Assembly: GCA_902787955.1 (NCBI GenBank)
Contig: CADAIJ010000003.1
Span: forward strand, 13,907-77,906
Direction: 5' to 3'
DNA length: 64,000 bases
Source of the DNA: an uncultured Erysipelotrichaceae bacterium
Lineage (GTDB): Bacteria > Bacillota_I > Bacilli_A > RFN20 > CAG-826
Shown: positions 9,069-27,541 of the stretch, piece after piece
Numbering within the stretch: position 1 is the stretch's first letter
How the letters are laid out: each line of letters opens with the position of its first letter
Notes under the pieces: model-generated
What the model saw: only the letters and a program-made list of their open reading frames with translations
What the model was told of the DNA's origin: nothing
The model's database searches: none
Program-made: the position numbers and the translations under genes

Positions 9069-9159
9069 GGAGGATTACCCAAGAGGCTGAAGGGGTGGGC
9101 TTGGAAAGCTCATAGGTTCCGAAAGGGGCGCTAGGGTTCAAATCCCTAATCCTCCGCCA
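9069..9159 (+). tRNA. tRNA-Ser (anticodon GGA).
   Basis: The acceptor stem GGAGGAT/ATCCTCC is followed by G and CCA. The anticodon loop is TTGGAAA. It has a long variable arm and a GGTTCAAATCC T-arm. Confidence 0.85.
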
Positions 9160-9164
9160 TCCTT

Positions 9165-9310
9165 AATTGTCGAGACACGTAAGTAAAAATACGTGTTTTT
9201 TATTACATTTTTAATATATTTACTATTTCTATGCCACCTGGTTGAGAGTCATATAGGGTTACTCTTTAAACCCCTTATAAAAATTGGATAGACACGAGGG
9301 TTTAACCCTC
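9165..9310. repeat. Composite repeat module, copy A. It consists of the motif TTGTCGAGACAC, hairpin 1, an AT-rich spacer and a degenerate hairpin 2.
   Basis: GACACGTAAGTAAAAATACGTGTTTTTT is a plus-strand terminator for the tRNA. AAACCCCTTATAAAAATTGGATAGACACGAGGGTTT is homologous to the modules at 11727-11900 and 23959-24163. Confidence 0.5.
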
Positions 9311-9454
9311 TTAACCATTTTGAAAAAGAAAAGATGATGAATGTTGTATCGCCCATATGTCCATTTTATTGTATGAAAGGTAAGGAGGGATTGTATTCTT
9401 TTTGATTGGGTTTTATATATTGTTTATTATGAAAACGAATTGAATGTTAAATTA

Positions 9455-10705
9455 TTAATTAAGCAAAAACTTTTTTAGTGGAATAACTTTGATTAAAAAT
9501 CCATCGTTTTCAATTATTTTTTCCTCTTCGTAAGTCACAATCATCAAATTGGATTTGGAATGATTAGCTTTTGCAAAAGCGATTAAATTATTAACTTCAC
9601 GATCATAGGCATCTTTTTCATCGATTGAATACGCTACTTGAATCGCGGTATTAAATTTGGAGAGATAAAAATCAATATCAGTTTTATTGCCTTTGAAGTA
9701 GTAAAGACAATCTTTGTGAGTTCTATATAAATGTAGAGCAACTATATTTTCTAATAGCGAACTTCTTTTATTATCTAAGAAAAGGTTTAATATCCCGTTG
9801 TCCATAAAATAATATTTAGGATTACTATTTTTATCTAAAAAAGAAGCACAATAATTTTCTAGTGTAAACAAGAGAAAAGCATCCTTACAATATCCACAAT
9901 AATCGATAACTATATCTTTAGATATCTTATATCCTATGCCAGTAATAATATTTTGAATCTTAGTAAAAGAAAGGTCATGCTTTACTGATTCAGCAATTTT
10001 TTTAACCATCAGTTTGATGCCGTTTTCATTTCTTATATTGTTATGAACAATAATATCATTATAAAGAACCTTTTGATAAATACTCGAAACATATTCTCTT
10101 TTGTTTTTAAAACTAATAGATTCAGGGAAACCACCATTAACAAAATAATCATTTAATAAACTATTTATTTGTCCAATCTCTTTAACAGAGTATCCATCTT
10201 TGTTTGCTTTGTTAGCTCTTAAAAACTCATCGAAAGAATACGTCATAATTTCCTTAGAAATGTATCTTCCACCTAGTTTTGCTTCCACTTCTTTTGAAAG
10301 CATTTTTGCGTTGCTCCCAGTGATATCAACTTTATATCCTTGATTTGCAACACGAATAGCAAACTTTTCCCAACCATCGATATTTTGAATTTCATCAAAA
10401 TAAAAATAATGTTTTTTATTAGTTAATTCTTCCGCGACTAAAAGAATGTCATCAAAATCATTAGCTGTGAATTCAATCAACCTTTCATCATCAAAATTAA
10501 TATAAATGATTTGTTTCCAATCAACACCTTCATTAATTAATTCTTGCACTCTTTTATAAAGTAATGTTGTTTTGCCTGCTCTTCTTAATCCAACTAGTAC
10601 ATAATTAATGTCTTTTTCTAAAACAATATTCCTGTCAATTATCACAGCATCTTTAATAACTTGATGTTGATCAAAGATAATTCTTTTTAAAGTCTCATGA
10701 TTCAT
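9455..10705 (-). CDS. AAA+ ATPase of the COG1373 family (AAA_14 + DUF4143), paralog 1.
   Basis: Walker A GLRRAGKTTLL and a Walker B-like FDEIQ. 416 aa with a DUF4143-like C-terminus. Confidence 0.8.
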   Translation of the reverse strand: MNHETLKRIIFDQHQVIKDAVIIDRNIVLEKDINYVLVGLRRAGKTTLLYKRVQELINEGVDWKQIIYINFDDERLIEFTANDFDDILLVAEELTNKKHYFYFDEIQNIDGWEKFAIRVANQGYKVDITGSNAKMLSKEVEAKLGGRYISKEIMTYSFDEFLRANKANKDGYSVKEIGQINSLLNDYFVNGGFPESISFKNKREYVSSIYQKVLYNDIIVHNNIRNENGIKLMVKKIAESVKHDLSFTKIQNIITGIGYKISKDIVIDYCGYCKDAFLLFTLENYCASFLDKNSNPKYYFMDNGILNLFLDNKRSSLLENIVALHLYRTHKDCLYYFKGNKTDIDFYLSKFNTAIQVAYSIDEKDAYDREVNNLIAFAKANHSKSNLMIVTYEEEKIIENDGFLIKVIPLKKFLLN

Positions 10706-10795
10706 AAATATTCCCTCTGTCGAGTATATTCTACAATATATATAGATATTTGTCGAGTATGTTATTCACTTATTAAAATTTGTGATTAAATATTA

Positions 10796-10993
10796 CTAGC
10801 ATGCGAACAAGCCTAAAGTAGTAGAAAGCAAGAACTCGCCTTTAAAAACAAAATTTTCAGCATATTGAGATTTTGCTAATCTTTTTAAAAATGCATCAAA
10901 GAAATAATCTTGAAGAATAACGTTTGAAGGAACTCCTTTTTGACTAGACAAATTTTTGATTCTAGCCTGTAATGAATTCTTATTAATTTTCAT
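10796..10993 (-). pseudogene. Truncated AbiEii/AbiGii-family nucleotidyltransferase toxin. Only the N-terminal 65 codons remain.
   Basis: SLQARIKNLSSQKGVPSNVILQDYFFDAFLKRLAKSQYAENFVFKGEFLLSTTLGL matches the conserved N-terminus of DUF1814 toxins. A TAG stop then follows, and unrelated sequence carrying the ATPase1 upstream repeats begins. Confidence 0.6.
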
Positions 10994-11606
10994 TCAAAAG
11001 CACCTCCATTAGACTATTTACTTTATCTTCGATTTTCATTTTACGTGCGTATTGGATAAGCCTATTCACATTTTTATCTTTTCTTTTGCTATACCAGGTT
11101 ACACACTTAACAAAAGATTCCGAATCCAGTTTTTTTCTATTTCTAATGAAATCGCATACTGTCTTTTCAATGTCGTAAACTTTGACCTTGTTGCCAAATG
11201 ATGTTTCAACTTCACTAATACCGAGATTATATGTCGTATCTCTTGTATCCGTATGAAGAATCACGCCATCTCTCGGAAGAGGAAATGGGCGATAATTTTT
11301 TGGAGCAGTTGCTTCTAAAGATGTTGGTATAAAATCACCAAGTCTATGAAGATAAGCAGCTCCATAGAAAGAATAAATTAGTTTCGGGTATTGATATTGG
11401 AAAATAAAATAATCATCCGTCATCCAATCTTCAGTTGAATAAAACCCTGGACACTGTTTTATAAGATTATATTTTTTAATATATTGTGAAAGGATGGATG
11501 TCGGAATATTTGCTTCGCTAACATCTCTTCCAGTAACATAACCGCCATTAGATTTAATAATTTTAGAAATCTTTTCAAAATTAGTCATACTTGCATTTCC
11601 AACCAT
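10983..11606 (-). CDS. AbiEi-family (type IV toxin-antitoxin antitoxin-like) protein.
   Basis: 207-aa protein directly upstream of the AbiEii remnant and overlapping it by 11 nt, the typical abiEi-abiEii operon arrangement. Confidence 0.45.
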   Translation of the reverse strand: MVGNASMTNFEKISKIIKSNGGYVTGRDVSEANIPTSILSQYIKKYNLIKQCPGFYSTEDWMTDDYFIFQYQYPKLIYSFYGAAYLHRLGDFIPTSLEATAPKNYRPFPLPRDGVILHTDTRDTTYNLGISEVETSFGNKVKVYDIEKTVCDFIRNRKKLDSESFVKCVTWYSKRKDKNVNRLIQYARKMKIEDKVNSLMEVLLNEN

Positions 11607-11726
11607 ATAATATTGTTTTGTGGTTTAATTTGCAATATGTTTACACATCCTGTTTATAACAACTTATGAGTTCACTAACATTTGATGCTAATGGAACATC
11701 CTCCATTCTTTCTTGAGTTTTATGTC

Positions 11727-11900
11727 CGTGTATCGACATTTGAGGGCACGATTGATTGTGAAGGCACGTACGAAAAGTGCGTGTTATTTCTTATTTTTGG
11801 GTCCTTTATTTGCTATATTTGGTCTTATGAATATAACTTTAATCAATTTGTATCTGGGCACATAAAAACCCCGTGAAAAATCTGGGCGGACACGAGGTTT
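11727..11900. repeat. Composite repeat module, copy B. It consists of the motif GTGTATCGACA, hairpin 1, an AT-rich spacer and hairpin 2.
   Basis: GGCACGTACGAAAAGTGCGTGTTATTTCTTATTTTT ... AAAAACCCCGTGAAAAATCTGGGCGGACACGAGGTTT. It is about 80% identical to copy C at 24010-24163. Hairpin 2 acts as a minus-strand terminator for ATPase2. Confidence 0.6.
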
Positions 11901-12022
11901 GAACATTGTTTAGTTTTTGTTTGATGGTGATTAGCCATCAAGCACAAAGCATTCATATTCAATAAGTTAAATATAAGTTTCATTATTCACATGAACCGTT
12001 GTAGTTTCTACATTTGGGTCGT

Positions 12023-13387
12023 TCATTCTAATAAAAAAGCTAAGTAATGTGGCAACACTAATAATATATTCCCATCTTCATCTATAGATTCCTTGATATT
12101 GAATTCACCAAACTTAATTAATCGTTTAACTTCTGGATAATCTATCTTATTTGAAATCACAGTTTTCGCGGATTTCGTTTTTCCTGATTTAGCCTTAACT
12201 TCCACCAAAGAGATATCTTTTTTATAGCGAGTAATAAAATCAATTTCTAAACCTGATTCTTTACCATAATAAAACAAATCTTTGCCATTCTTAGTAAAAG
12301 CATCAGCGATAATGTTTTCATATAGAGCGCCTTTATAAGAACCTAATTTACCAAATAAAACATCTTCATATACATCTTTTTCTAACATCGCCATAAAAAG
12401 CCCTGTGTCAGCGACATATAATTTAAAACATTCTTCAATCTTATTTCCTGATAATGGTAGTTCAAGTTGTCTAAGATTATAACAATATGTTACTAAACCA
12501 TAATCCACTAACCATTGAATTGCAGGATCATAAATTGTTGAGGTTGCCTTCTTGGCAACTTTTGAATACATAAACTTTTTATTCTCCTTAGCAAGTTGAG
12601 CAGGAATCGATGCGTAAACTTTATTTATTTTAGCGAGCAAAGCTTTATCAAGTTCTTCTTCTTCGTTTTCATTTAGATGCTTGCCATAATCATCTTTATA
12701 TCCTTCTAAAATATCATTTAAAACTGCTCTTACTTGATTTAGATCATTCGTTTTAAGAAAAGTATCTACTGCTTCTGGCATACCTCCTACACATAGATAT
12801 TCTTTAAAATAACGAGTCATCGCTTCATGGATTGGCTGACGAATATTCTCTTTAGCTTCAAAAGAGGATTTTAAATAATTAATGATATCTTGGCTAATAC
12901 CCTTAGCTAATAAGAACTCTTCAAAATCCATTGGTTTCATATAAACAACATGCTCGTAACCAATAGAAGCTCCACCATGATATTTTTTGTTATATCCTTT
13001 TAATCCTAATAAGGAGCCAGAAGCAATCACATCATAACGATCATCATTTTCTACGAATGATTTAAGAGACGCTCTAGCGCCAGAAGATTCTTGAATTTCA
13101 TCTAAAATGATTACTGTTTTATAAGGAATAAATTTAACATCAGGCCTTAATGCGGAAATATTGGTGGTAATAGTATTAACATCTAAATCTCCATTAAATG
13201 CGGTCTTAAGACTTGGCTCTAATTTAAAATTGATATAAATAACATTTTCATAGTTTTTATTTGCAAAATCTTTGATTGATGTTGTTTTGCCAGTTTGTCG
13301 TAATCCTTTTAATAGAAAAACCTTCCTTTTAGTTTTTAAGTTTTCTTTCCAACTAATAAGCTCTGCTTCAATTTTTCTTTTATACAT
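12023..13387 (-). CDS. AAA+ ATPase of the COG1373 family (AAA_14 + DUF4143), paralog 2.
   Basis: Walker A GLRQTGKTT and a Walker B-like ILDEIQ. 454 aa. Confidence 0.8.
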   Translation of the reverse strand: MYKRKIEAELISWKENLKTKRKVFLLKGLRQTGKTTSIKDFANKNYENVIYINFKLEPSLKTAFNGDLDVNTITTNISALRPDVKFIPYKTVIILDEIQESSGARASLKSFVENDDRYDVIASGSLLGLKGYNKKYHGGASIGYEHVVYMKPMDFEEFLLAKGISQDIINYLKSSFEAKENIRQPIHEAMTRYFKEYLCVGGMPEAVDTFLKTNDLNQVRAVLNDILEGYKDDYGKHLNENEEEELDKALLAKINKVYASIPAQLAKENKKFMYSKVAKKATSTIYDPAIQWLVDYGLVTYCYNLRQLELPLSGNKIEECFKLYVADTGLFMAMLEKDVYEDVLFGKLGSYKGALYENIIADAFTKNGKDLFYYGKESGLEIDFITRYKKDISLVEVKAKSGKTKSAKTVISNKIDYPEVKRLIKFGEFNIKESIDEDGNILLVLPHYLAFLLE

Positions 13388-13406
13388 ATAAATACCTCAA
13401 TTTTTA

Positions 13407-13490
13407 GACTTTTCCAAGCGAATTAACGACAATAGTATAGACTTTTCCAAGCGAATAATCAATAACTCTAAGGATTTTTCCAAGCGAATC
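13407..13490. repeat. Three direct repeats of GACTTTTCCAAGCGAAT in the 5' leader of ATPase2.
   Basis: Copies start at 13407, 13440 and about 13474, spaced 33-35 bp. They create the artefactual SLGKV repeats in the 80-aa ORF 13404..13646. Confidence 0.7.
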
Positions 13491-13527
13491 ATAACGGAAG
13501 ATATAGTCATACACTCTTTTTTGTGTA

Positions 13528-13627
13528 TGTGTACCGACAATTGGTATTTCAAACCCTTGTGTGTACGGACAATTGGAGACAGTATTTATTATATAGACAC
13601 GCGCCATCTTAGGAGCGTGTTTTTTTC
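13528..13627. repeat. Partial repeat module D. It consists of two TGTGTACCGACAATTGG-type direct repeats 32 bp apart plus hairpin 1. Hairpin 2 is absent.
   Basis: TGTGTACCGACAATTGG at 13528 and TGTGTACGGACAATTGG at 13560. Then GACACGCGCCATCTTAGGAGCGTGTTTTTTT follows. The architecture matches 23959-24057. Confidence 0.6.
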
Positions 13628-13659
13628 TACCCGCTTTATGATGCAAATAAAAACTTTAT

Positions 13660-13700
13660 ATAACAAAAAGGTGGGAGATGGATAACTCCTCTCCCTACCT
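13660..13700 (-). terminator. Intrinsic terminator for the secreted-protein gene.
   Basis: On the minus strand the hairpin AGGTAGGGAGAGGAGTTATCCATCTCCCACCT is followed by TTTTTGTT. Confidence 0.5.
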
Positions 13701-13783
13701 TATTCGTTGTTTATTTACTAATCTTAATTAGTTTTCTCTTCTTCTACGGATGAAGACAAATCCACTAAAAGAGACTAAGATAA

Positions 13784-14347
13784 TTATTCTGTTGGGCTGC
13801 AATTATATTTAAGGGTAATGGATGTAATTATGTTAGAACCCATAAGAGTGGCTGCTGATATTGAAAAGTATTTATTCCCGTCAAGTTGACTAAATAACTT
13901 TTCTTGCCCTGCGGTTATAGGAGTAAATGCTGCAAAATCATCTAGAGAATTTCTGCCAAGAACTTGAATATTATTATACTCATATCCATTATCCTTAGTA
14001 TCGATTCTTATAGAATAGAGCGATTGGAATTCACTCTTATTTGAAATTATGCCTCCCTTATTTCCCATGAACTGAAGACCTTCGTCGACCTTAGTGAAAC
14101 AATTATTTGCATTATTTACATTAAATGTTAAAGGATTCCCGCTTGTTGTATTAACCACAAAATCAGAATTGACACTTTCAATATCATTTTTGCAGTCAAT
14201 AACAAGCGTATAAAGTGGTATATCAGCTTTAACAATATTAACAGCTTGTAATCCATTAGAGTTAGACATTGCTGCTACACCAACAGTGCCAACGACTGCT
14301 GTACATATAGCGAGTGATGCTAAGATAAGTTTCTTATGACTATTCAT
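13784..14347 (-). CDS. Secreted hypothetical protein with a signal peptide.
   Basis: The N-terminus MNSHKKLILASLAICTAVVGTVGVAA is signal-peptide-like. A perfect RBS AAAGGAGGAATTATT precedes the ATG. Confidence 0.6.
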   Translation of the reverse strand: MNSHKKLILASLAICTAVVGTVGVAAMSNSNGLQAVNIVKADIPLYTLVIDCKNDIESVNSDFVVNTTSGNPLTFNVNNANNCFTKVDEGLQFMGNKGGIISNKSEFQSLYSIRIDTKDNGYEYNNIQVLGRNSLDDFAAFTPITAGQEKLFSQLDGNKYFSISAATLMGSNIITSITLKYNCSPTE

Positions 14348-14413
14348 AATAATTCCTCCTTTTAAGTGAATAGAATAATCCTCTAACGCACTTATGTTAA
14401 TAAAATTAAGAAA

Positions 14414-14432
14414 AGTGTTTCACATTGAAACT
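14414..14432. promoter_or_regulatory. Palindromic operator-like site AGTGTTTCACATTGAAACT.
   Basis: Perfect inverted repeat GTTTCA-CAT-TGAAAC, about 70 nt upstream of the 13784..14347 start codon. The same 19-mer recurs at 20462..20480. Confidence 0.5.
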
Positions 14433-14491
14433 ATTTTCATATTTAAACCACATCTAAAAGCGTTTAATTAAGATTAGAGATTTTAAGAGCA

Positions 14492-14523
14492 ATATAAAAA
14501 CCTCGTGAATAACACGAGGTTAA
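14492..14523 (-). terminator. Intrinsic terminator ending the surface-protein/mscS transcription unit.
   Basis: Perfect 9-bp stem AACCTCGTG/CACGAGGTT with a 5-nt loop, followed on the minus strand by TTTTTAT. Confidence 0.6.
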
Positions 14524-14548
14524 TCTTACAAATTAATCTATCTAGATA

Positions 14549-15571
14549 TTACTTTTTATCATCTATATCCTTAGATAAGTCTTTTTGTTCTTCGACGAAA
14601 GCTTCGACTACTTTTCTATCTTTAACGGATAATTTAGTTTCTTCACTTCCTTGATCATAAGAAACAGTGACTTGTGGGAATGGGATATTGACATTATTAT
14701 CATCAAAGATAATCTTAATTTCTCTATTCAAATCACGTTGAACTTGATAGATATCTGTTTCCTTACATTTAGCGACGAATAAAAGAACAACTGCACTATC
14801 AGCTAATTCGGAAACACCTTTATAGAATGGTCCTTCAACAATAGCAGGGATTTTTTCTTTAATCTTGTCTAAGTTCTCAGCAATAACTTTTTCAATAGCT
14901 TCGATTCTATCGCCATAAGAAACACCAACATAACATTTAGCGACTGATAATTCTTGGGTTTGGTTAACAATGGAACGAATATCACTATTATTCATAATCT
15001 TGATATTGCCACCAGCATCAACTAATTTAGTGGTTCTAATACCGATTGCTTTAACTTCGCCTCTCCAGCCATCGATGATAACGATATCGCCAACTTGGAA
15101 ATCGCCTTCAAAGACGATGAAGATACCGGCGAGGATATCAGACACTAAAGCTTGTGAACCAAGGCCTATAATAAGAGTTAAGACACCAGCAGAAGCAAGC
15201 ATCATTGTGGTATCTGCTCCCCAAGCACCCATAATGATGAATACGGAAGCGATAGCGACCACCCATTTAAGTAAATTTAAGAGAAGTAAGGCTATTGTAA
15301 TTGTCTTCTTCGATTCAAAGGTAATCTTCGCTAAAAGGGAGAGAATGAAGAACGCTGCCGCAGCAATTACAACAATCTGAACTGTTCTAATCATTGCTGG
15401 GAACCCTCTTGTCATCATATAGTTAACAAAGTCCCCTTGTCCTTCAACTGGCACGAAGATCGTTTCACTTCCAAATATCTGTTTATTGAAGACAAATGAA
15501 ACAATAACTCCAGCGGCGAATAGTCCGAATACTATCCAGCCAATTAGTTTAATTACTTTTTTCTTTTCCAT
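14549..15571 (-). CDS. mscS: Small-conductance mechanosensitive channel, MscS family.
   Basis: Three N-terminal TM helices and a conserved MscS beta-domain region (GDxVxIDGxxGEVxxIGIRTTKL). The start was chosen at MEKKK, which is preceded by the RBS AAGGAGG. Confidence 0.8.
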   Translation of the reverse strand: MEKKKVIKLIGWIVFGLFAAGVIVSFVFNKQIFGSETIFVPVEGQGDFVNYMMTRGFPAMIRTVQIVVIAAAAFFILSLLAKITFESKKTITIALLLLNLLKWVVAIASVFIIMGAWGADTTMMLASAGVLTLIIGLGSQALVSDILAGIFIVFEGDFQVGDIVIIDGWRGEVKAIGIRTTKLVDAGGNIKIMNNSDIRSIVNQTQELSVAKCYVGVSYGDRIEAIEKVIAENLDKIKEKIPAIVEGPFYKGVSELADSAVVLLFVAKCKETDIYQVQRDLNREIKIIFDDNNVNIPFPQVTVSYDQGSEETKLSVKDRKVVEAFVEEQKDLSKDIDDKK

Positions 15572-15598
15572 AAAAAATACCTCCTTGAATACATGCAT

Positions 15599-18391
15599 TT
15601 ATCTAACGGAAAAATAATAATTTTGAATTATTGATCGAGTGTATGTGTCGGTTGCTCCCAAATCATAACTATCAAAGGTCATCGACACTGAGACTTTTTT
15701 AGTTTTTAGTAACGCTAATAATTCATCACGATATTCGTAGTCAGTAGGAACAGTAACAACGCCTTCATTAATTCCATTATTAGCGAAGTTAGAAATATCA
15801 AACGGAATGTAGTATGTAGCGGCTTCATTATTAGGATCAAATATTTTTAATTTAGTATTAGATAATTTACCGCTCATACCAGGATAACGGAATAAACCTA
15901 TGTTGAACTCAATGTTATTTGAGTAAACTGTGTCGGATTTTATATAACCACCAACATATTCATTAGTAGTTGAGCCGTTTTCTTGCATATAACCTATTTC
16001 GGTATCATTAATAATCTTTTGACCTGTTCTACTACTAGTGACGTAGAAAAAGGCGTTATTATTATCTAATGCGGTAACATCAAATCCGGTAATTTCGAAG
16101 TATTGGAAACCACTTCTCTTTTCAAGAGGGAAAGTTAATGGGTTATTTGAATCGTTATTATCGGCTAAATAGAATGTTAAATCTAAATATTCATTCGCTT
16201 TATCACTGATACTACCGGAAACACCAATATATGTCTTACTATCGAATGTGTAATATTCATAGTGGATTTGAAGGTTATTAATATGTGAAGTTTCTTCAGC
16301 CATATCAATGATGCCTTCAAATACCACGGTTCCATGATCACTATGATCATAGACAACAAGGGAATAGGTATAGACGCCATTTTCAAAATCAATAGTTGAA
16401 AAATCAAGACTACTCGCACTCTTTATTTCTCCTGATTCTGGTAAGGTCAAATAAGGGTTAAGATTAGTAGCATCACCGCCATCAATTGGAGTTAGCCAAA
16501 GTCCTACTTTTTTATAGAATCCATCCGCAAATGTATCAGTGTAGTCCATGTGCCAACTAAGGACACGCTCATCGGTACTTTCGTAAACTTTAATGCCATC
16601 AAAACTAAGTGAATTGACATGGGCTTCACGACCTTCGCTATCAACGAATGTAATGGTACCGGTAGTATATTGGGTGTATTCTCCAACTGATTCTAAAAGA
16701 TATTCAATCATAAAATTGATTGGTTCATTAGTGTTTAAAGTCATATCGGCTGTATCAGAGACATAGATATAAGTATCATATGGGCTAAATTCAGCGCTTA
16801 GATTCTTATCTTCTAGAGCTTTTTCAGGATCTGGATTATAGAAAGTGATTCTTAATCTAACTAAATCATATTCTGGATCGACATAGTCGACAGTAACTGG
16901 GATTTGATGTTCGGAAGCAGTGAAATCAATTTCATCGTCAATTACAATTGAATTAATCTTGGTTTCTTCAACGAATGTAGCGACGAATTCATAATCTTTA
17001 TCAAGATAAGAAATAATCTTCATACCAGGCTCATATTCACCGCGTCCACTCTTCCAGAATTTAAAGCGATAACCTTCTGGAGGTGTGAATGGGTTTTCAG
17101 GAAGGGTATAAGTTTTGCCTTCTCTTAATGAGATGACAATTGGATCATCGGTCGAATCACCTGGATTAAGAGTGATGTTATATTTAACTGGCGCAGTTGA
17201 AGTATCGAAAACAATATGTTGTTCATCGGTTTCTTTCTCTTCTTCAGCGTAGCGGTAGGTAATGTAATATGAGAATCCATCAGAGTCATCGAAATTAAAC
17301 TGATTTTCATCAGCTGGATCATTAAGCGTGATTGTTTGATATTCACTAGTGACAGCAAGTTCAAATCGTTTAAGATTGTTTTGGCTATCAGATAATATCA
17401 AATTGAAGTTATCGAATAGTTCATCATCATATTCACAAGCGATAAGAACTTCAAAAGTTCCATCTGATAAATCAGGCACTAAATCTAAAGTCACGGAAGC
17501 TTCATCTTCCTTGATTGTGGTTATAAATTCATCATAAATATAGGTGCCAGTAGAAAGGTTTCTAACAATAACTTCATAAGAAGTTTCAGCATTTAAACTA
17601 GTGAAATAGAATTCATTCTTTCCTTCGGTCAAGTCGTATACTTGAAGCTCTGTGCCATCACTTCTGATGCTGATATCATATGTATCTTCTCCATTACCAG
17701 TTAGATATAATCTAACACCAACTTTATTTGCCCATGGAACAAGGTTAGTAACTTTAACAGAACCTTCATCTTTTGGTTCTGGAGTTTCTTCTTTTGTAGT
17801 AACTGTATCTTCGTATAAAACGTAATTATTATAGGTAGTATCAATGACGTAAACGGAATATTCAGTGTTTGATGTCAAATCAACGAATTCACCACTATTA
17901 GAGCCTTCAATGAGTGCATTGGATACAGTATAAGATTCATTCTCAAGTTTAATAATGCACTCATCATTATTGATATCCGCTAAATCGAGTTCATAAACAA
18001 TTGAGTTTGTAGTTGTCTCAATTTGATTCATTTTACATTTAGCGTTAAAGAAAAGATTGATGCCCATTAGTGTTGATAATGTTGTTACTACCACCATTGA
18101 GGCACCTGCTACAGTTGCGATTGTTGTGCCAATAGAGGCAGAGGAGCTGCCATTAGAAGAGCCTTTATTTGAGCCATCTTCTTTCTTGGAAGACTTATCT
18201 TTTCTTTCTTTTTTCTCTTCTTTAATCTTTTTGGACTCATTTAAAACAGGATTATCATTTATTTCATCACGAAGACGATCGTCATTATCAAAGTAGGAAG
18301 TTGATTCGTTATCTTGAGTGCTTCCAAACTCAAAATTAGGATTCTTGCCCTCGTTGGTAATTCTTTCAATGTTAAATTCGTCTCGTTTCAT
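15599..18391 (-). CDS. Large type-II membrane-anchored surface protein. It has a Lys/Glu-rich cytoplasmic N-tail, one TM helix and an extracellular domain of about 800 aa.
   Basis: 930 aa. A Ser/Gly-rich linker precedes a hydrophobic TM at about residues 88-115. The remainder is rich in T, D, Y and N with no enzymatic motif. Confidence 0.6.
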   Translation of the reverse strand: MKRDEFNIERITNEGKNPNFEFGSTQDNESTSYFDNDDRLRDEINDNPVLNESKKIKEEKKERKDKSSKKEDGSNKGSSNGSSSASIGTTIATVAGASMVVVTTLSTLMGINLFFNAKCKMNQIETTTNSIVYELDLADINNDECIIKLENESYTVSNALIEGSNSGEFVDLTSNTEYSVYVIDTTYNNYVLYEDTVTTKEETPEPKDEGSVKVTNLVPWANKVGVRLYLTGNGEDTYDISIRSDGTELQVYDLTEGKNEFYFTSLNAETSYEVIVRNLSTGTYIYDEFITTIKEDEASVTLDLVPDLSDGTFEVLIACEYDDELFDNFNLILSDSQNNLKRFELAVTSEYQTITLNDPADENQFNFDDSDGFSYYITYRYAEEEKETDEQHIVFDTSTAPVKYNITLNPGDSTDDPIVISLREGKTYTLPENPFTPPEGYRFKFWKSGRGEYEPGMKIISYLDKDYEFVATFVEETKINSIVIDDEIDFTASEHQIPVTVDYVDPEYDLVRLRITFYNPDPEKALEDKNLSAEFSPYDTYIYVSDTADMTLNTNEPINFMIEYLLESVGEYTQYTTGTITFVDSEGREAHVNSLSFDGIKVYESTDERVLSWHMDYTDTFADGFYKKVGLWLTPIDGGDATNLNPYLTLPESGEIKSASSLDFSTIDFENGVYTYSLVVYDHSDHGTVVFEGIIDMAEETSHINNLQIHYEYYTFDSKTYIGVSGSISDKANEYLDLTFYLADNNDSNNPLTFPLEKRSGFQYFEITGFDVTALDNNNAFFYVTSSRTGQKIINDTEIGYMQENGSTTNEYVGGYIKSDTVYSNNIEFNIGLFRYPGMSGKLSNTKLKIFDPNNEAATYYIPFDISNFANNGINEGVVTVPTDYEYRDELLALLKTKKVSVSMTFDSYDLGATDTYTRSIIQNYYFSVR

Positions 18392-18439
18392 ATTGTTAAG
18401 AAAGCCTCTTCGTTATTGAACGAAAAGGCTATTTTTGTA

Positions 18440-20392
18440 TTATTTATCTTTTTTCTTAAAGACTTTACCGACACTCTTTTCTTCAACTGGTGTCATTTCG
18501 CCTTTTCTTCTTGTTCTAATGTACCAGAACATAATTCCACCAAGGAGTAAGATTCCTAAGATGAAGGCGATAATAGTGAATGGACATGCATGAACAATTA
18601 AGACGATTAAATCTAAGATGAAGTTAGCAATTAAAGCACATGTTGCAATAAATGTTAATAAGACTTCTTTAGCGGTCATCTTTTCCTTAAACTCATCAAC
18701 CTTAGCGTTATTCTTAATTATTTTTTTATAAACATTTAATCTAAGTAAGACATAAAGTGCTGCCACTAGTGTGATTAAGATATTAATGATTAATAAGATA
18801 ACACCAATACAGAATCCGTGTGATGCACCACCTCCAGCGGCACCTTTAGTGATAAAGGCAAATTCTGATAATTTACTAACTTTGAAGACTAAATCATTTC
18901 CATCAACACTATAGTCACTTACAAATTCCATTTCATCCGCTGAATGGATGTGAAGAATTCTTGCTTTTGACATATCGATGCCATTTGGAATAGCCATGCG
19001 GACTGTAATTATTAATCCTGGTTTAATGTCAGATGGCTGAATAACTGTTTCAACGCCACCAACGATTTGGACTAATTTAACATCGTAAACACTAGCAATT
19101 TTCTCATTCTTTTCGAGCATTTGTTGGATTTTAGCGTAGTCTTCAGCTATATCTTTTTCAGCAACATCAGTTCTAACTTCTACTCTTAACTCAATGTTAT
19201 CTGGAATGACTTCGTCATCAACTTCGACAGTAACATCTGGGTTATTTGGATCGGTGACTTCGGCACCAACGATTTCAAAATCAACTGATGCTGTAGCTTC
19301 ACCAAATGTAACTTTCGCAGTGTATTTACCGACATTAATACATTCAGTTACTTCAGAACCATCTTTATAGTATTTGATTTGAGGGTTTGGGAATGCTTCT
19401 TTGTTATATCCTGATTCAAAAGTGGCTACTTTCTTAGTATTACTGAACTCTAAATCAGTAGGTGCATTAAGTGTTAATGTAAGACCTTCAGTGATTTCAC
19501 ATGGATCGGTTCCACCATTACAAGTTGCGGTAATTTTATTGCCGTCAGCAATGTAATCCCAATCATGATCGTGATTATAAGAATATGGATATCTTAATCT
19601 ACGATAAAGACCGTCATTATAATCTTGAGGTAATGGTTCATTGCCCTTGAAAAGTGTTCTTCCTTCTGTACCTGCTTCATCTGTCCATAAACCAAAATCA
19701 GCGCCTAATTCATAATGATACCTGCTAAAAACAGGGCGAATTGGAAGAACATTTTTAGACACAGCAGTCATATCAAGAGTAACATCTTTACCAAAATAGA
19801 AATAGCATTGTATAGAAGCTTCTTGGGTTTGATTCGCATAGTGACCATAAGCCACAATTGATCTAGTGGTTATTTTAACAGTTTCAGTAAATTCAAAGTA
19901 AGCATGGCAAAATGAGTAAAATGCCCAAGTATAATAATCGTGATTAGCGATAATATTTAATTCTCCATCACCTTTAATTGTCAAATTAGAACAGACAGCA
20001 ATACCATAAATTGCCCATGCTTCAGGTAATTTAATATTATTTACACCCTTCGCATTAATAGTGAACATATCGGAATCACCATAATAAAGAATTACGTGTT
20101 CAACATTGTCAAAACTTTCACCATTATAAGTAAAACTATGTTTAGGCGCTGTCGTAGAATCAAATGTATAGTTATCAAGAGTCAAAGTTGTAGTGCTTGG
20201 GTCATATGACCAGCCATCACCAGAAGTATGGTCAGATGTAACTTCTTCATCTCCGACATAAAGTTTATAGCTTACTGGATCCGCTTTAACTTCTTTAAAT
20301 TCAGCTTGATAATTAATGGCTAATGCAGCGGCAGATAATGATAAAAACGCTGTCGCAAGCGATATAACTAATCTTGATGTTTTCTTTTTCAT
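18440..20392 (-). CDS. Secreted/membrane protein with a signal peptide, a large extracellular domain and a C-terminal multi-TM anchor.
   Basis: The start was reassigned to MKKKTSRLVISLATAFLSLSAAALA, which has the RBS GGAG 9 nt upstream. The C-terminus has 3-4 hydrophobic helices. Confidence 0.6.
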   Translation of the reverse strand: MKKKTSRLVISLATAFLSLSAAALAINYQAEFKEVKADPVSYKLYVGDEEVTSDHTSGDGWSYDPSTTTLTLDNYTFDSTTAPKHSFTYNGESFDNVEHVILYYGDSDMFTINAKGVNNIKLPEAWAIYGIAVCSNLTIKGDGELNIIANHDYYTWAFYSFCHAYFEFTETVKITTRSIVAYGHYANQTQEASIQCYFYFGKDVTLDMTAVSKNVLPIRPVFSRYHYELGADFGLWTDEAGTEGRTLFKGNEPLPQDYNDGLYRRLRYPYSYNHDHDWDYIADGNKITATCNGGTDPCEITEGLTLTLNAPTDLEFSNTKKVATFESGYNKEAFPNPQIKYYKDGSEVTECINVGKYTAKVTFGEATASVDFEIVGAEVTDPNNPDVTVEVDDEVIPDNIELRVEVRTDVAEKDIAEDYAKIQQMLEKNEKIASVYDVKLVQIVGGVETVIQPSDIKPGLIITVRMAIPNGIDMSKARILHIHSADEMEFVSDYSVDGNDLVFKVSKLSEFAFITKGAAGGGASHGFCIGVILLIINILITLVAALYVLLRLNVYKKIIKNNAKVDEFKEKMTAKEVLLTFIATCALIANFILDLIVLIVHACPFTIIAFILGILLLGGIMFWYIRTRRKGEMTPVEEKSVGKVFKKKDK

Positions 20393-20461
20393 AAGAATAA
20401 TCTCCATAAATATATATTTAAGATAATATAGATTTACACATGTATAAATCTTATTAAGCAT

Positions 20462-20480
20462 AGTGTTTCACATTGAAACA
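20462..20480. promoter_or_regulatory. Palindromic operator-like site AGTGTTTCACATTGAAACA.
   Basis: Identical core to 14414..14432. It lies about 70 nt upstream of the 18440..20392 start and in the divergent region shared with the response-regulator gene. Confidence 0.5.
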
Positions 20481-20560
20481 TTTTGCTTTTTTAGCGAAGA
20501 TAACTGTGTAATAATTCTTGTCGATATATTAAATTATCAATATATAGAGGGTGAAACACG

Positions 20561-21157
20561 GTGAAACATACATTTGGTGAAGCGCTTCTAAAAGCAAGAA
20601 AACAAAAAGGATTATCCCAGCAAGAGCTTGCGGAAAGTATACCTGTCACTCGTGCTAGTGTCGCTAACTGGGAAGCAGATAGAAGACTTCCAAACGCTAC
20701 TATTATTGCTAAGATTGCTGAAGTGTTAGAAATAGATGTTAGCGAACTTCTTGATACCGCTAATAAAGATGATATTCACCCAAATGTTATTATCGTTGAT
20801 GACAATAAAATCGTTCTCACAGGTGGAGCACCAATTATTGAAAAAGCCCTTCCTAATGCGAAAGTCGCTTGTTTTACTAAGCCAAAAGAAGCGATTAAAT
20901 ATGCAAAAGAAAACCGCATCTCTTTAGCGTTTTTAGATATCGAACTCGGTTTAACAAACGGGATAGATTTGTGTAATGAGTTACTTGAAATTAACCCACG
21001 TATGAACATTATTTTCTTAACCGCCTATCCAGAATATTCGGTTGATGCATGGAACACTAAAGCGAGTGGGTTTATGGTTAAACCAATCACTTTTGAAGGT
21101 GTTAAAGAACAACTTAAGAAACTAAGACACCCATTCCCAACTGGAGGCATTATTTAA
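20561..21157 (+). CDS. Response regulator with an N-terminal XRE-type HTH and a C-terminal receiver domain.
   Basis: GTG start with the RBS AGAGGG. The HTH is LSQQELAESIPVTRASVANWE. The receiver has IIVDD...FLDIEL...K, with the phospho-acceptor Asp in FLDIEL. Confidence 0.7.
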   Translation: MKHTFGEALLKARKQKGLSQQELAESIPVTRASVANWEADRRLPNATIIAKIAEVLEIDVSELLDTANKDDIHPNVIIVDDNKIVLTGGAPIIEKALPNAKVACFTKPKEAIKYAKENRISLAFLDIELGLTNGIDLCNELLEINPRMNIIFLTAYPEYSVDAWNTKASGFMVKPITFEGVKEQLKKLRHPFPTGGII

Positions 21158-22431
21158 TGCCGGGTGACACTTTAATATATGCCTACTTTTTTATAGGCGG
21201 TGCTTTATTACTTCTTGTTTTATTAGGTTTAGTAGCCTCACTTAGTTTTCCTACTTTAGATAAAAAGAGCAAAATCTTTTTTATTTCATCTTTTTCAATA
21301 CTTGTTTTGAGTATTATCGCTTATATTATCGACTTATTTGTTTATACAAATCCTAGCCTTGCTTGGGTTGGAAAAATAATTGCGTTCTTTGAAACATTTT
21401 TACCATCTGTATTAATGCCACTTCTAACGATCTATGTTTTACTTTGCACGAAAAAAAGTATCCGTAAAAATGCCATTTTCTATATAAATATTGCCTTATG
21501 TGTGGTTTTAATAGCCTTACTTATAGTCACTCAATTTACGGATGGAATTTATTATTTTACCGACGAAAATGAGTTCGTTCGTGGTGACTTCTACTTTGTT
21601 TTAATTGTCCCGATGCTCGCGTTAATTGCCTTAAACCTTCTTCTAATTATTTATAATCGTAAGCTTCTAGATAAGATGTACTTTATCGCATTTCTTATAT
21701 ATTTAATTCCTTTATTAATAGTTATGACTTTGCAGACTTTTATTTCGGTCTTTATCCTTATTGTCTTAGCTATATCTATTAGCGCATTATCGATGTTTGG
21801 AATTATTATGTATGACCAAATAGATCAATACTTACGTCAACAAAGAGAAATAGCGGATCAACGCGCTAGTATCAAGGTGTTACAAATGAGACCTCACTTT
21901 ATCTATAACACAATGACAAGCATCTATTATTTATGTGTACAAGATCCAGAAAAAGCTCAACAAGTAACCCTAGACTTTACAACTTATCTTCGTAAGAACT
22001 TTAATGCAATAACTAGTAAAGAACCTATTCCTTTTAGTGAAGAACTTGAACATACTCGCGCTTATTTAGCGGTCGTTAAAGCTCAATATGAAGATAACCT
22101 TAAAGTGGAATTTGATACACCTCATACTAAGTTCCGTGTACCACCTTTAACTTTACAACCACTTGTTGAAAATTCCGTTAAATACGGACTAAATATTGAT
22201 TCTACTGAACCATTACGTGTTTCTATTAAAACAGAAAAAGTTGATAATGGCAGCGTTATTATCGTTAGCGATACCGGCCCAGGCATTTCAGGTGATGATA
22301 ATGGAGAACCACATATTGCTTTAAATAATATTCGTGAACGTCTATCGTTAATTAAAGGTACATTAACCATTTCACCAAATGAAAATGGGGGCACTATTGT
22401 TAGCATCTATATTCCTGATAATAACAAATAG
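21157..22431 (+). CDS. Sensor histidine kinase, LytS/YehU-like (multi-TM sensor + His_kinase + HATPase_c).
   Basis: About 6 TM helices. The H-box RPHFIYNTMTSIYYL and the SDTGPGISGDD G-box are present. Its start overlaps the stop of the RR gene. Confidence 0.75.
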   Translation: MPGDTLIYAYFFIGGALLLLVLLGLVASLSFPTLDKKSKIFFISSFSILVLSIIAYIIDLFVYTNPSLAWVGKIIAFFETFLPSVLMPLLTIYVLLCTKKSIRKNAIFYINIALCVVLIALLIVTQFTDGIYYFTDENEFVRGDFYFVLIVPMLALIALNLLLIIYNRKLLDKMYFIAFLIYLIPLLIVMTLQTFISVFILIVLAISISALSMFGIIMYDQIDQYLRQQREIADQRASIKVLQMRPHFIYNTMTSIYYLCVQDPEKAQQVTLDFTTYLRKNFNAITSKEPIPFSEELEHTRAYLAVVKAQYEDNLKVEFDTPHTKFRVPPLTLQPLVENSVKYGLNIDSTEPLRVSIKTEKVDNGSVIIVSDTGPGISGDDNGEPHIALNNIRERLSLIKGTLTISPNENGGTIVSIYIPDNNK

Positions 22432-22470
22432 AAACCCCATGAAAAACTGGATGGACACGAGGTTTAAACC
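22432..22470. repeat. Hairpin-2 element of the repeat family, acting as a minus-strand terminator for ATPase3.
   Basis: GAAACCCCATGAAAAACTGGATGGACACGAGGTTTAAACC is homologous to 11865-11900 and 24128-24163. Confidence 0.5.
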
Positions 22471-22476
22471 ATTTCA

Positions 22477-23730
22477 CTATATAGAGGAAACAGGAAGAAC
22501 ATAACAATCTTCACCGATTGAATAAATCGCGTGAGTAGTACACACTATTGCATTTTTGGTGCGTCTAAGCTTTGTTGATTTGAATAAGTCAAAGGCTTTT
22601 ATATCGTCCTTTTTATATGTTTCTCCACTTTTTAATTCCACTAGAGAAATATTACCGTCGAATACTATCACTAAATCAACTTCATTCTTATCAAAGGTTC
22701 TAAAATAATAGAAAGATGTATTGACATCCTTGTGGTTGTTTTTATAACTTTTAAGTATTTCATTGATAATATAAGTTTCAACGATATGTCCCTTTAAATA
22801 AGAGTTTTTTAATGTCTCTGGAGAATTAACTCTTGCTAAATAACACGCCAATCCTGTATCGGAGAAATATACTTTTGGTCTTTTAACAACCCGTTTAGAA
22901 ACACTTTCTTCATAATATGGTTGCAATAAATGGATTATATTTCCAGCTACCAAAACACTAATCCAAGATTGTACGGTTTTCATATCTATCCCAACTTCTT
23001 TTGCTAAATTGTCATAGATTAATTCTTGGCCAGTAAGAGAAGCTAATATTGTCATAAAATTAATGAATTTTTGCTTGTCTTTTAATGTTATTAAATCCGA
23101 GACGTCTCTTTCTAAGTAAGTTGTTACGTAATCTGAATAAAATGAACCAGTATCCAAATCCTTATTATCATAAAGTTCTGGATAAAAGCCTCTTACAATG
23201 TATTCATAAAGGTTATTCGTTTCAATCATATATGTATTACATCTTTCGTTAATATGATTGATATCAATTACAAATGGTTGTTCAGAAACATTATTAATCT
23301 CACTCAGAGATAATGGTTCCATTGAAATAAGACCAACCCGACCAGACATAGACTCAGTAATGCCTTTCATAAGTTTATAGGCTTGAGAGCCTGTCAAAAC
23401 ATACAAGCCTCTCTTTTTTCCAGACTTAATATGAGCATCCACTGCACCTTCTAAATAATCAAATAGCTCTGGAGCTTTCTGTATTTCATCAATAATATAT
23501 GGAGCTGGATGAAGAGATAAAAATTCAGCAGGATCATTTTTGGCTGCGTTTCTAACAAGTGGATCCGCTAAAGAAACATACCCGAACCCTAAATCTTTTT
23601 CAATCAAACCACATAAAGTCGTTTTTCCGACTTGCCTAGCGCCTGTAATAACGGTAACGGCTTTGTTTTTAATTGTTTTAATAATTTCTCGATAAATTGT
23701 TCTTTCAATCATTATTTTTACCTCAAACAT
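22477..23730 (-). CDS. AAA+ ATPase of the COG1373 family (AAA_14 + DUF4143), paralog 3.
   Basis: Walker A GARQVGKTTL and a Walker B-like IIDEIQ. 417 aa. Confidence 0.8.
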   Translation of the reverse strand: MFEVKIMIERTIYREIIKTIKNKAVTVITGARQVGKTTLCGLIEKDLGFGYVSLADPLVRNAAKNDPAEFLSLHPAPYIIDEIQKAPELFDYLEGAVDAHIKSGKKRGLYVLTGSQAYKLMKGITESMSGRVGLISMEPLSLSEINNVSEQPFVIDINHINERCNTYMIETNNLYEYIVRGFYPELYDNKDLDTGSFYSDYVTTYLERDVSDLITLKDKQKFINFMTILASLTGQELIYDNLAKEVGIDMKTVQSWISVLVAGNIIHLLQPYYEESVSKRVVKRPKVYFSDTGLACYLARVNSPETLKNSYLKGHIVETYIINEILKSYKNNHKDVNTSFYYFRTFDKNEVDLVIVFDGNISLVELKSGETYKKDDIKAFDLFKSTKLRRTKNAIVCTTHAIYSIGEDCYVLPVSSI

Positions 23731-23958
23731 ATTATATCTCGTAATTTTTGGAGTTCAACTCCTATTTTTTCATAACTAAATAGTAAGCGAAATCACTAAA
23801 CATTTTATGTTTTCAATACAAAAACCGAAAGATTACGGATTAAATAACCGAAACAAAACTAAAAGAATCCATCAATAAAACATGTTATTTCTTTTAAAAA
23901 ATAGGTTTTTATAAAAATCGACCAAAACAACAGTGCAATGCGATTTTAGTCGAAGAAG

Positions 23959-24163
23959 TATGTGTATCGACAATTAGTCTTAGAACCCTGTATGTGTATC
24001 GACAATTGAAGACATCAATGATTGTCAAGACACGTATAAAAAAGTTCGTGTTTTTTCTTATTTTTTGGCATTTTTTGCTATATTAGGTCTTGGAACACGG
24101 TTTTATTCAATTTATAACTGGACACATAAAAAACCCCGTGAAAATCTCGACGGACACGAGGTT
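23959..24163. repeat. Composite repeat module, copy C. It consists of two TATGTGTATCGACAATT direct repeats 32 bp apart, hairpin 1, an AT-rich spacer and hairpin 2.
   Basis: Direct repeats at 23959 and 23991. GACACGTATAAAAAAGTTCGTGTTTTTT at about 24037. AAAAAACCCCGTGAAAATCTCGACGGACACGAGGTTT at about 24127. Confidence 0.6.
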
Positions 24164-24182
24164 TATACTTTTTTTGCAATAA

Positions 24183-26719: not shown

Positions 26720-26720
26720 T

Positions 26721-27539: not shown

Positions 27540-27541
27540 TT

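Follow-up and report, generated by a model that had tools for sequence, protein, structure and literature searches.

The stretch of DNA that was analysed (hereafter the window) comprises 64,000 nucleotides of contig CADAIJ010000003.1 (positions 13,907 to 77,906, forward strand) of an uncultured Erysipelotrichaceae bacterium (assembly GCA_902787955.1). Downstream of a tRNA-Ser(GGA) gene it contains three genes for ATPases with AAA_14 and DUF4143 domains and several copies of a non-coding module with two hairpins. Comparison with other loci made clear that this module belongs to a larger junction element (around 220-400 nt), of which it forms one half and which delimits small gene cassettes in arrays. 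Below, the box-bearing side of the element is called the P arm, the two-hairpin module the P' arm, the hairpins of the latter hp1 and hp2, and a palindrome in an extension of the P arm hp0. Labels such as L004 refer to comparison loci outside the window, which were mostly 8-kb tiles or short metagenome contigs from metagenome-assembled genomes (MAGs). The tRNA genes were called with ARAGORN and the defence genes with PADLOC. The features of the window that matter here are the following:

9069-9159, plus strand: tRNA-Ser(GGA) (ARAGORN), the array anchor, at whose terminal CCA the junction homology begins
9160-9311, plus strand: module copy A (P' arm, type A), 84-87% identical to copy A of L004; core TCCTTAATT at 9160-9168, Box3/IRL ATTGTCGAGACAC at 9166-9178, hp2 block at 9269-9311
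around 9172-9199, plus strand: hp1 of copy A, with a T-run to around 9203; tRNA terminator-like (-10.5 kcal/mol, z -3.6)
9455-10705, minus strand: ATP1, AAA_14 and DUF4143, candidate PDC-S01 (PADLOC model PDLC04787); its cassette spans 9268-10792
10717-10792, minus strand: region upstream of ATP1, with two direct TTGTCGAGTAT repeats (10717-10729 and 10750-10762) over a promoter-like TCGACA-N17-TAGAAT
10796-11606, minus strand: AbiE remnant, consisting of an N-terminal abiEii fragment (10796-10993) and a full abiEi (10983-11606)
11723-11911, plus strand: junction B, with a short P arm (single box GTGTATCGACATTTG at 11728-11742), core CGATTGATT at 11750-11758 and a P' arm with hp1 at 11763-11785 (-12.8 kcal/mol) and hp2 at 11867-11909 (on the minus strand a 10-bp stem, then UUUUU)
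12023-13387, minus strand: ATP2, AAA_14 and DUF4143, candidate PDC-S01 (model PDLC04786); sole gene of a 1.84-kb unit (11746-13590)
13522-13625, plus strand: junction D, with a two-box P arm (13529-13543 and 13561-13575) ending in GGAGACA, and core GTATTTATT
22428-22474, plus strand: copy E, hp2 only (-13.5 kcal/mol, z -2.7), fused to the stop codon of a His_kinase gene
22477-23730, minus strand: ATP3, AAA_14 and DUF4143, candidate PDC-S01 (model PDLC04790)
23801-24014, plus strand: long P arm of junction C, with box1 at 23966-23977 and box2 at 23998-24009, ending in the core CA (24013-24014)
24015-24175, plus strand: core TCAATGATT and P' arm of junction C (IRL, hp1, AT-rich block with TGCTATATT, variable centre, hp2)

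An nhmmer profile built from 21 copies of the module recovered junction B (E = 1e-44), junction C (3e-42), copy A (3e-28) and copy E (3e-9), and a separate P-arm profile found only junctions D (9e-18) and C; no further copies of the module were detected in the 64-kb window, which is also the range covered by our copy-number statements for the source organism. An initial annotation of this DNA had placed each ATPase gene between full copies (A, B, C) and half copies of the module. The profile search recovers the same set, with the half copies being of two kinds: D (13525-13625; boxes and hp1 only) is a distal junction, and E a truncated copy that carries hp2 only and forms both a 3' terminator-like element and the left edge of the ATP3 cassette. 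The copies at B and C (the latter spanning 23958-24175), previously estimated to be around 80% identical over some 150 nt, share 79.6% identity over 186 nt. Motif counts point the same way: with at most two mismatches GGACACGAGGTTT matched four times (0.55 expected; at least four in none of 100 shuffles) and the box motif nine times (1.4 expected; a number likewise reached in none of 100 shuffles). Past its core, junction D continues into a degenerate IRL and a divergent hp1 (-13.7 kcal/mol, z -5.1), without spacer and without hp2. We take it for the distal (P-core-B') terminus of the array at tRNA-Ser, and its layout of box, hp1 and MscS is repeated in L008.

The anatomy of the complete element could be derived from the comparison of many copies. 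The P arm contains one to three direct ATCGACAATTGG boxes, around 32 nt apart, ends in CAATTGGAGACA and sometimes carries a longer extension. It is followed by a core of around 10 nt, consisting of CA, six variable nucleotides and GATT, which is the sole stretch common to all junction types. The P' arm then runs from Box3/IRL, which overlaps hp1, over a conserved AT-rich block and a variable centre to hp2. A unit thus reads P', cargo, P, with the cargo transcribed toward the tRNA. The two-hairpin module of the initial annotation therefore exists, but the recurring unit is larger and includes the P arm with its direct boxes and the core. In an alignment of 22 copies the tRNA-linked and the box-linked copies part exactly at CA, which is the terminal CA of the tRNA in the one class and belongs to the GACA of the P arm in the other. 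In 11 tRNA-linked copies CCA forms the start of the junction homology, and the breakpoints are confined to around 11 nt at the tRNA 3' end. A P arm and core (CA, six nucleotides, GATT) followed by an unrelated terminator, without the module, were found in L017, L020 (two cases) and L045 (junction J3), and a more degenerate junction of P arm and terminator, with a shorter TATT linker, in L041. The distal junctions (window D, L008, the half copy of L003, L021 and J4 of L045) have a divergent hp1 and nothing of the module beyond it, as expected if a native, vertically inherited tRNA terminator was displaced by insertions.

The two hairpins differ in orientation. hp1 folds on the plus strand, a few bases past the tRNA, and has a T-run after its stem; the folding energies are -10.5 to -13.7 kcal/mol, and three of the four copies reach z -3 to -5. 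The best fold of hp2 is on the minus strand, where a perfect 10-bp stem (AAACCUCGUG/CACGGGGUUU) is followed by U5-6; its G-U pairs are C-A mismatches on the plus strand, which also lacks a U-run. Every hp2 of the window closely follows the 3' end of a gene on the minus strand (ATP1, ATP2, ATP3 or rhaA), the one of junction C (24131-24173) being the predicted rhaA terminator. Both have the form of intrinsic terminators, and on that basis hp1 would terminate rightward transcription in place of the native tRNA terminator, and hp2 would terminate leftward transcription of the cargo gene. Considering the opposite orientations, the module may be described as a back-to-back pair of predicted terminators with a conserved AT-rich spacer, which refines the two hairpins reported earlier. 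Upstream of hp2 the plus strand has an invariant extended -10-like TGCTATATT; in a promoter and terminator scan counts were not above those of shuffled sequence, and single sites are described as promoter-like.

The long P-arm extension is a feature of its own. The part at 23801-23955 is non-coding, is common to unrelated ATPase lineages and holds hp0 (23917-23953), a leftward terminator-like palindrome, as well as AACCGAAA repeats; counterparts were found in L045 (7455-7661), L003 (345-470), L020 (1600-1730) and L026 (3130-3260). The sequence that precedes ATP3 is a mosaic, broken at 23800. An internal junction of L005, initially taken for a tRNA 3'-end remnant, was dropped as such, since it aligns better to the long P-arm extension of L026.

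Outside the window, species-representative genomes were searched with a strict hp2 pattern, which matched 17 tiles on 16 contigs of around 15-16 genomes (one to two per genome), all at array junctions. The genomes in question are all rumen Erysipelotrichaceae or "Bacilli" MAGs. The element was also found in rumen metagenomes, where a scan for the succession of box, core and IRL yielded ten further loci, one with three junctions within 4.9 kb. As the loci were fetched by means of hp2 and junction patterns, conservation estimates are biased for those segments. The module directly follows tRNA-Ser(GGA) in nine genomes (L002, L004, L007, L008, L009, L011, L013, L014 and L016), with a syntenic backbone beside it (rluD, a tRNA synthetase and RNase J); other anchors are tRNA-Ser(GCT) in L010 and tRNA-Ser(TGA) in L005. 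Modules were 76-94% identical in nucleotide sequence between genomes whose RluD proteins are 43-83% identical, so that the module is far better conserved than the backbone, whereas the distal-junction hp1 is far more divergent. We count this disparity as suggestive of horizontal spread. An origin from phages or plasmids was considered and rejected, as the patterns are absent from IMG/VR and no blastn match was obtained in INPHARED phage or PLSDB plasmids.

The behaviour of the units is that of cassettes. They measure 0.35-3.5 kb, contain zero to five genes and are arranged in arrays that usually begin at a tRNA-Ser gene. In L009 the tRNA-Ser is followed by a single module and then by the stop codon of rhaA, an unoccupied-looking arrangement, versus 14.9 kb between tRNA-Ser and module C in the window; in L004 two modules lie 350 nt apart. 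Insertion at the tRNA 3' end can thus be seen against an unoccupied site (L009, and the insert of L041), and direct att-type repeats with a common core are found at the unit boundaries. The same cassettes recur elsewhere. The ATP1 unit (9268-10792) shares 93.6% nucleotide identity with L021 (4999-6522), where its upstream end runs into IRL and hp1. For the ATP3 unit the identity is 96.5% to L045 (over 22432-23800) and 92.1% to L050 (over 22432-24014, a stretch that opens with the first hp2 base and closes with the core CA), and at the protein level ATP3 is 98% identical to the middle ATPase of L045 (L045b) and 90% to that of L041, both in other contexts. In L045 three PDC-S01 ATPases stand in a row with a junction element between each, in an array between Fe-ADH and a metQ-like operon, and in L041 the ATP3-like gene is the only gene between tRNA-Ser(GCT) and the degenerate P arm, in an unrelated backbone. 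Furthermore, L012 is recombinant for two junctions which L020 has in separate places, the two alignments overlapping by 19 nt at box2 and core, and two cassettes of L008 recur in L019/L028 in a different order. Look-ups of the exact ATP1, ATP2, ATP3 and RluD proteins returned only contigs arranged as the window, and RhaA had no record. The ATPases are therefore not tied to conserved positions, L009 being empty and the ATP1 and ATP3 cassettes occurring in other contexts, as had been anticipated for cassettes.

The three ATPases of the window, given as paralogs in the initial annotation, are indeed so, albeit very distant ones (pairwise identity 22-26%). In the order ATP1, ATP2, ATP3, the E-values were 2e-30, 2.4e-22 and 7.9e-25 for AAA_14 (Pfam), 1.6e-13, 9.1e-26 and 2e-42 for DUF4143 (Pfam) and 1.3e-89, 1.9e-133 and 3.2e-98 for PDC-S01 (PADLOC), and the expected Walker A motif GxRxxGKTT is present at residues 39, 28 and 30 (GLRRAGKTT, GLRQTGKTT and GARQVGKTT). 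The DUF4143 domain has a PD-(D/E)XK-type fold (PMC3424549), and PDC-S01 has been described as a stand-alone single-gene candidate system in which an ATPase is fused to a PD-(D/E)XK domain, with experimental validation pending (PMC12988326, PMC3424549). We consider the ATPases candidate anti-phage NTPases with a PD-(D/E)XK nuclease domain, and the matches to PADLOC candidate models are in line with the defence association that had been suggested for the cassettes.

Beside junctions, PDC-S01 ATPases of seven lineages were found, at most 41% identical to each other; in the window and at the other loci they match the PDC-S01 models at E 1e-50 to 1e-133. The module brackets ATPases, as first noted, but is not specific to them. 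Other defence-type cargo comprises PDC-S27 (ATPase_2 and DUF234), PDC-S04/SoFic (Fic), an RmrA-like helix-turn-helix (HTH) and M78 protein, and AbiE, and further units carry a WYL regulator, DUF4417, an ABC transporter, TetR/Sel1, a lipase or sugar operons (rha, FGGY, uxa). PDC-S01 accounts for at least 7 of around 28 distinct unit types, a strong enrichment, and judged from the models the cargo would mostly consist of PADLOC defence candidates. In rumen genomes PDC-S01, AbiE and SoFic have been reported as the most abundant defence calls, with around 1.6 PDC-S01 loci per genome (PMC13356809). No other single defence-candidate locus is reported to be as frequent there as PDC-S01, which ranks fourth when all prokaryotes are considered (PMC13356809, PMC12988326).

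The AbiE unit of the window is a remnant. AbiEi is full length (207 aa; PADLOC 9.4e-58), but the AbiEii that should accompany it (around 290 aa in an intact pair) is cut to 65 aa (7.6e-18, profile positions 7-66 of 294). A broken IRL, TTTGTGATTAAAT, marks the fusion of the ATP1 cassette to codon 65 of abiEii; past the upstream end of ATP1 the sequence of L021 reads GACACG and hp1, where the window reads abiEii sequence. The truncated toxin gene next to an ATPase near tRNA-Ser had thus been recognized correctly, as had the position of another ATPase (ATP3) between a two-component system and the rha operon, its immediate neighbours being the His_kinase gene and rhaA. As a side observation, the core TTGTCGA of the TTGTCGAGTAT repeats upstream of ATP1 is the heptamer of the junction boxes.

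The enzyme that might move the cassettes was sought among the neighbouring genes. Pfam scans of around 70 open reading frames (ORFs) from the window and the junction flanks yielded only insertion-sequence (IS) transposases (DDE_Tnp_1) and one ORF with a truncated resolvase domain, and the window has no element-encoded integrase beside an att site. The truncated ORF encodes 250 aa of a large serine recombinase (Resolvase, 4.5e-29; L022, 8502-9254), and its 3' end enters a type-A module near a P arm; copy A of the window (within around 9225-9255) and copy A of L004 keep around 15-35 nt of the end of this ORF. No further fragments of a serine recombinase were found by tblastn in any locus or in the window. 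The serine recombinase as the moving enzyme was kept merely as a weak lead, given the single contig and relatives without junction sequence. These relatives (L029 and L030) sit in defence-carrying elements. In both (L029 10001-11818, L030 10001-11789) the recombinase gene is broken at an identical position, which leaves separate Resolvase and Recombinase ORFs with 22-31 nt between them; the split genes follow AAA_25 genes, with GmrSD, PLD, Abi_2 and radical-SAM as cargo, and a pseudogene, recoding or an assembly artefact are possible explanations. Tn7-like ends, considered on account of a likeness of the boxes to TnsB sites, were rejected, since neither TnsB/TnsC genes nor TGT/ACA termini nor 5-bp duplications came to light.

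Based on the above, we consider it the most probable explanation (a probability of roughly 0.6) that cassette arrays at tRNA-Ser 3' ends are built by conservative site-specific recombination, with a recombinase that acts in trans or has since been lost. Units would be inserted, stacked and exchanged within the core, by an enzyme encoded elsewhere or lost, for which the large serine recombinase is the only candidate seen. The two predicted terminators would insulate each cassette transcriptionally, and the ATPases would be cargo, not the motor. For the window we partly infer an array that consists of tRNA-Ser, copy A with ATP1, fused by a deletion to the AbiE unit, junction B, the ATP2 unit and junction D. 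The deletion would have taken the P arm of ATP1, the next P' arm and most of abiEii, after which abiEi and the short P arm of B follow; beyond D would come the core, the divergent hp1, X187 and then MscS onward. A second array fragment would comprise the His-kinase gene, hp2 (copy E), ATP3, the long P arm, the core, the P' arm of C and rhaA. The repeated acquisition of ATPase cassettes with a shared boundary sequence, proposed at the outset, is supported by the recurrence of cassettes and their sharp ends.

Several observations weigh against this explanation. No intact recombinase was present beside any of the around 40 junctions examined, the link to the serine recombinase comes from a single contig (L022), and its closest full-length relatives (L029 and L030; 78% and 67% identical) have no module or boxes within 10 kb. 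Some arrays have no tRNA in reach (L045 and tile 1 of L003), and with 8-kb MAG tiles and short contigs the array ends are rarely visible. Flanking copies of one unit differ, A and B being only 56% identical, so that no event in the window can be recent. Some cassette-cassette joints lack a junction element (e.g. L008, 3686-3705), implying that general recombination also shuffles content. Finally, the missing P' remainder of copy E and the segment 13626-22431, which may be backbone or another unit, are not accounted for.

The junction-free joints, the absence of a recombinase beside the junctions examined and the ATP3 upstream mosaic, which breaks outside the core (at 23800), would all suit another explanation, namely that the element is an insulator or regulatory repeat which is spread by homologous recombination alone, provides terminators and promoters for toxic defence genes and acts, through its copies, as portable homology after DNA uptake. 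Its composition of three terminator-like hairpins and promoter-like boxes fits as well. Nevertheless, we find this rather unlikely. The P-core-B' junctions (four independent ones and a degenerate fifth) are homologous on one side only and can therefore not be made by homologous recombination alone, and the tRNA/P' junctions break at CA. Moreover, around 10 nt of homology is insufficient for RecA-type exchange, which makes the shared core too short. Even less can be said for classical decay, in which prophages, integrative and conjugative elements or integrative and mobilizable elements at tRNA-Ser were reduced to one gene, in a manner reminiscent of cis-mobilizable elements (CIMEs), without mobility at the level of cassettes. 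Tandem accretion at tRNA genes and subsequent decay is well documented (PMC5704250), and a truncated serine recombinase beside one junction and IS insertions inside arrays might be its traces; the many independent minimal units, which consist of a single gene between intact P and P' arms and are free of mobility-gene debris, and the identical cassettes in different array positions and genomes make it quite unlikely.

A further possibility is that the DUF4143 ATPase-nuclease itself acts as the mobility enzyme, with the single-gene unit as an IS-like or homing element that is aimed at the tRNA-Ser flank and has 13-bp box2/IRL inverted repeats. ATPase-only units are common (ATP2 of the window, 1.84 kb; L003/L020, L026, L041 and three in L045), and GTGTATCGACAAT and ATTGTCGAGACAC are inverted repeats of each other (13 nt, box2 versus IRL). 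In Tn7, AAA+ and PD-(D/E)XK folds are carried by TnsC and TnsA. Here, an AAA+ domain and a PD-(D/E)XK nuclease fold are found in one protein (PMC3424549, PMC12988326). However, the ends are 80-95% identical and the ATPases only 22-41% across seven lineages, the opposite of what co-evolution of an enzyme with its ends would produce, and the same ends occur on ATPase-less units (Fic, AbiE, RmrA-like, PDC-S27, transporter and lipase). Considering in addition that no target-site duplication was seen, the ATPases are very unlikely to be the enzyme. The scenario with the least to recommend it, and one that we deem extremely improbable, is that the module encodes a small RNA or represents a generic element of the repetitive extragenic palindrome (REP) type. 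The high conservation of the module and the invariant TGCTATATT could be explained that way. Yet RNAalifold on the 21 copies gives just the two terminator hairpins, with compensatory change in 0 of 16 predicted pairs, single-sequence folds of the module centre are inconsistent, Rfam gave no match at the gathering threshold or at E<=1, and on the plus strand hp2 contains a C-A mismatch and lacks a U-run. Scatter of the REP type was not observed either: the copies of the window all lie within 15 kb, with none elsewhere in the 64 kb (outside 9160-24175), and at other loci the module is found at array junctions and is strongly enriched beside DUF4143 genes.

Arrays built by site-specific recombination at tRNA genes have well-known counterparts. 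Tandem accretion and CIMEs at tRNA or other att sites have been described for Firmicutes (Pavlovic et al. 2004, reviewed in PMC5704250), and our arrays share with these a conserved gene whose 3' end serves as the integration site, the direct att-type repeats, the integrase-less units and the stacking of unrelated cargo. Unlike in CIMEs, the units are mostly single genes (1-3.5 kb), the repeat starts at CCA without tRNA sequence, measures 220-400 nt and contains predicted terminators, and no functional integrase-bearing partner element was seen. The tycheposon islands of Prochlorococcus, which are flanked by partial tRNA copies and in many cases have their own integrase and replication genes (bioRxiv 10.1101/2020.12.28.424599), are similar in being tRNA-anchored variable islands that result from successive integrations, pushing older units inward, and in their adaptive or defence cargo, degenerate integrases and the involvement of tyrosine or large serine recombinases. 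Our arrays differ in having no duplicated tRNA fragment and no unit with an intact integrase.

The resemblance to integrons concerns other traits. Integrons hold attC arrays of gene cassettes, which in sedentary chromosomal integrons include defence cassettes. Common to both are small, co-oriented and mostly single-gene cassettes with defence or toxin-antitoxin cargo, a conserved structured repeat, an order of cassettes that varies between hosts and a recombinase outside the cassette. Here, on the other hand, IntI and attI are lacking, the array starts at tRNA-Ser, with rluD and housekeeping genes upstream, and the cassettes have their own predicted promoters and terminators. An R''-L''/L'-R' palindrome is missing from the repeat; folded as a consensus, the 21 copies give two local hairpins without end-to-end pairing. 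Integrons are not known from the host phylum. The pdif (Xer) modules of Acinetobacter plasmids, with 28-bp sites in inverted orientation and XerC/D dependency, likewise are small accessory or toxin-antitoxin modules with short sites and a recombinase in trans (presumed here), but nothing dif-like was seen in our case and the units are in direct orientation. Altogether, the system is best read as a variant of tRNA-anchored island accretion with integron-like traits. A bolder and more tentative proposal is that the junction is the recombination site of an undescribed integron-like platform, in which a dedicated, possibly serine, recombinase away from the array captures, stacks and reshuffles self-contained single-gene defence cassettes at the tRNA-Ser 3' end and at secondary sites, with PDC-S01, PDC-S27, PDC-S04/SoFic, AbiE and RmrA-like genes as cargo.

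In one clade, then, PDC-S01 genes travel as self-contained cassettes with a defined boundary element and a tRNA-Ser 3'-end anchor, unlike the stand-alone genes described so far; in searchable papers no boundary element or tRNA-Ser anchoring has been described for DUF4143/PDC-S01 genes. The P arm, core and P' arm offer a concrete DNA site for a recombinase hunt, and the conserved flanks a handle for harvesting new defence candidates from rumen metagenomes. There may also be integron-like cassette dynamics where integrons are not known. If there is an integron-like platform, its mobility would help to account for the top rank of PDC-S01 among the defence-candidate loci of rumen genomes; if the element merely remains from ordinary island accretion, what is gained is more modest, namely a well-resolved defence hotspot.

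The rha segment next to junction C (24183-32390) may be a unit in its own right that moves horizontally, with a P' and a P arm as its borders. The linkage of P' to rhaA is also present in L004, L009 and L010. RhaA of the window is 87-96% identical in amino acid sequence to that of these loci, and RluD only 45-53% to that of related genomes (in L009, 90% for RhaA and 46% for RluD). From tile coordinates we infer that contig CACYJD010000005 has the segment from rha to w36515 between tRNA-Ser(GCT) with the module and a P arm. IS elements have entered several arrays: IS3-family rve genes are inserted in those of L050-L054 (precomputed annotation), and in L028 (1700-5359) a DUF1295 gene within the array has an identical 371-aa DDE_Tnp_1 transposase gene on either side, a composite-transposon-like arrangement.

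Some minor features of the window remain to be mentioned. Between the start codon of ATP2 and the P arm three tandem 33-nt repeats (TAGACTTTTCCAAGCGAAT) are found at 13405-13503, which could be an operator- or iteron-like array. The MscS terminator (14499-14521) has the hp2 stem (AACCTCGTG/CACGAGGTT) with a 5-nt loop and may reflect a local terminator style or a degenerate hp2. Two large ORFs (930 and 673 aa; 15599-20461) between MscS and the two-component pair had no Pfam or NCBIfam match at E<=0.001-0.01. Lastly, a 57-nt repeat (75% identical) with the palindrome GTGTTTCACATTGAAAC occurs at 14389-14445 and 20437-20493, preceding a 187-aa gene and the 673-aa gene, near the pair of an HTH and receiver protein and a His_kinase (20561-22431), and may represent a shared operator.

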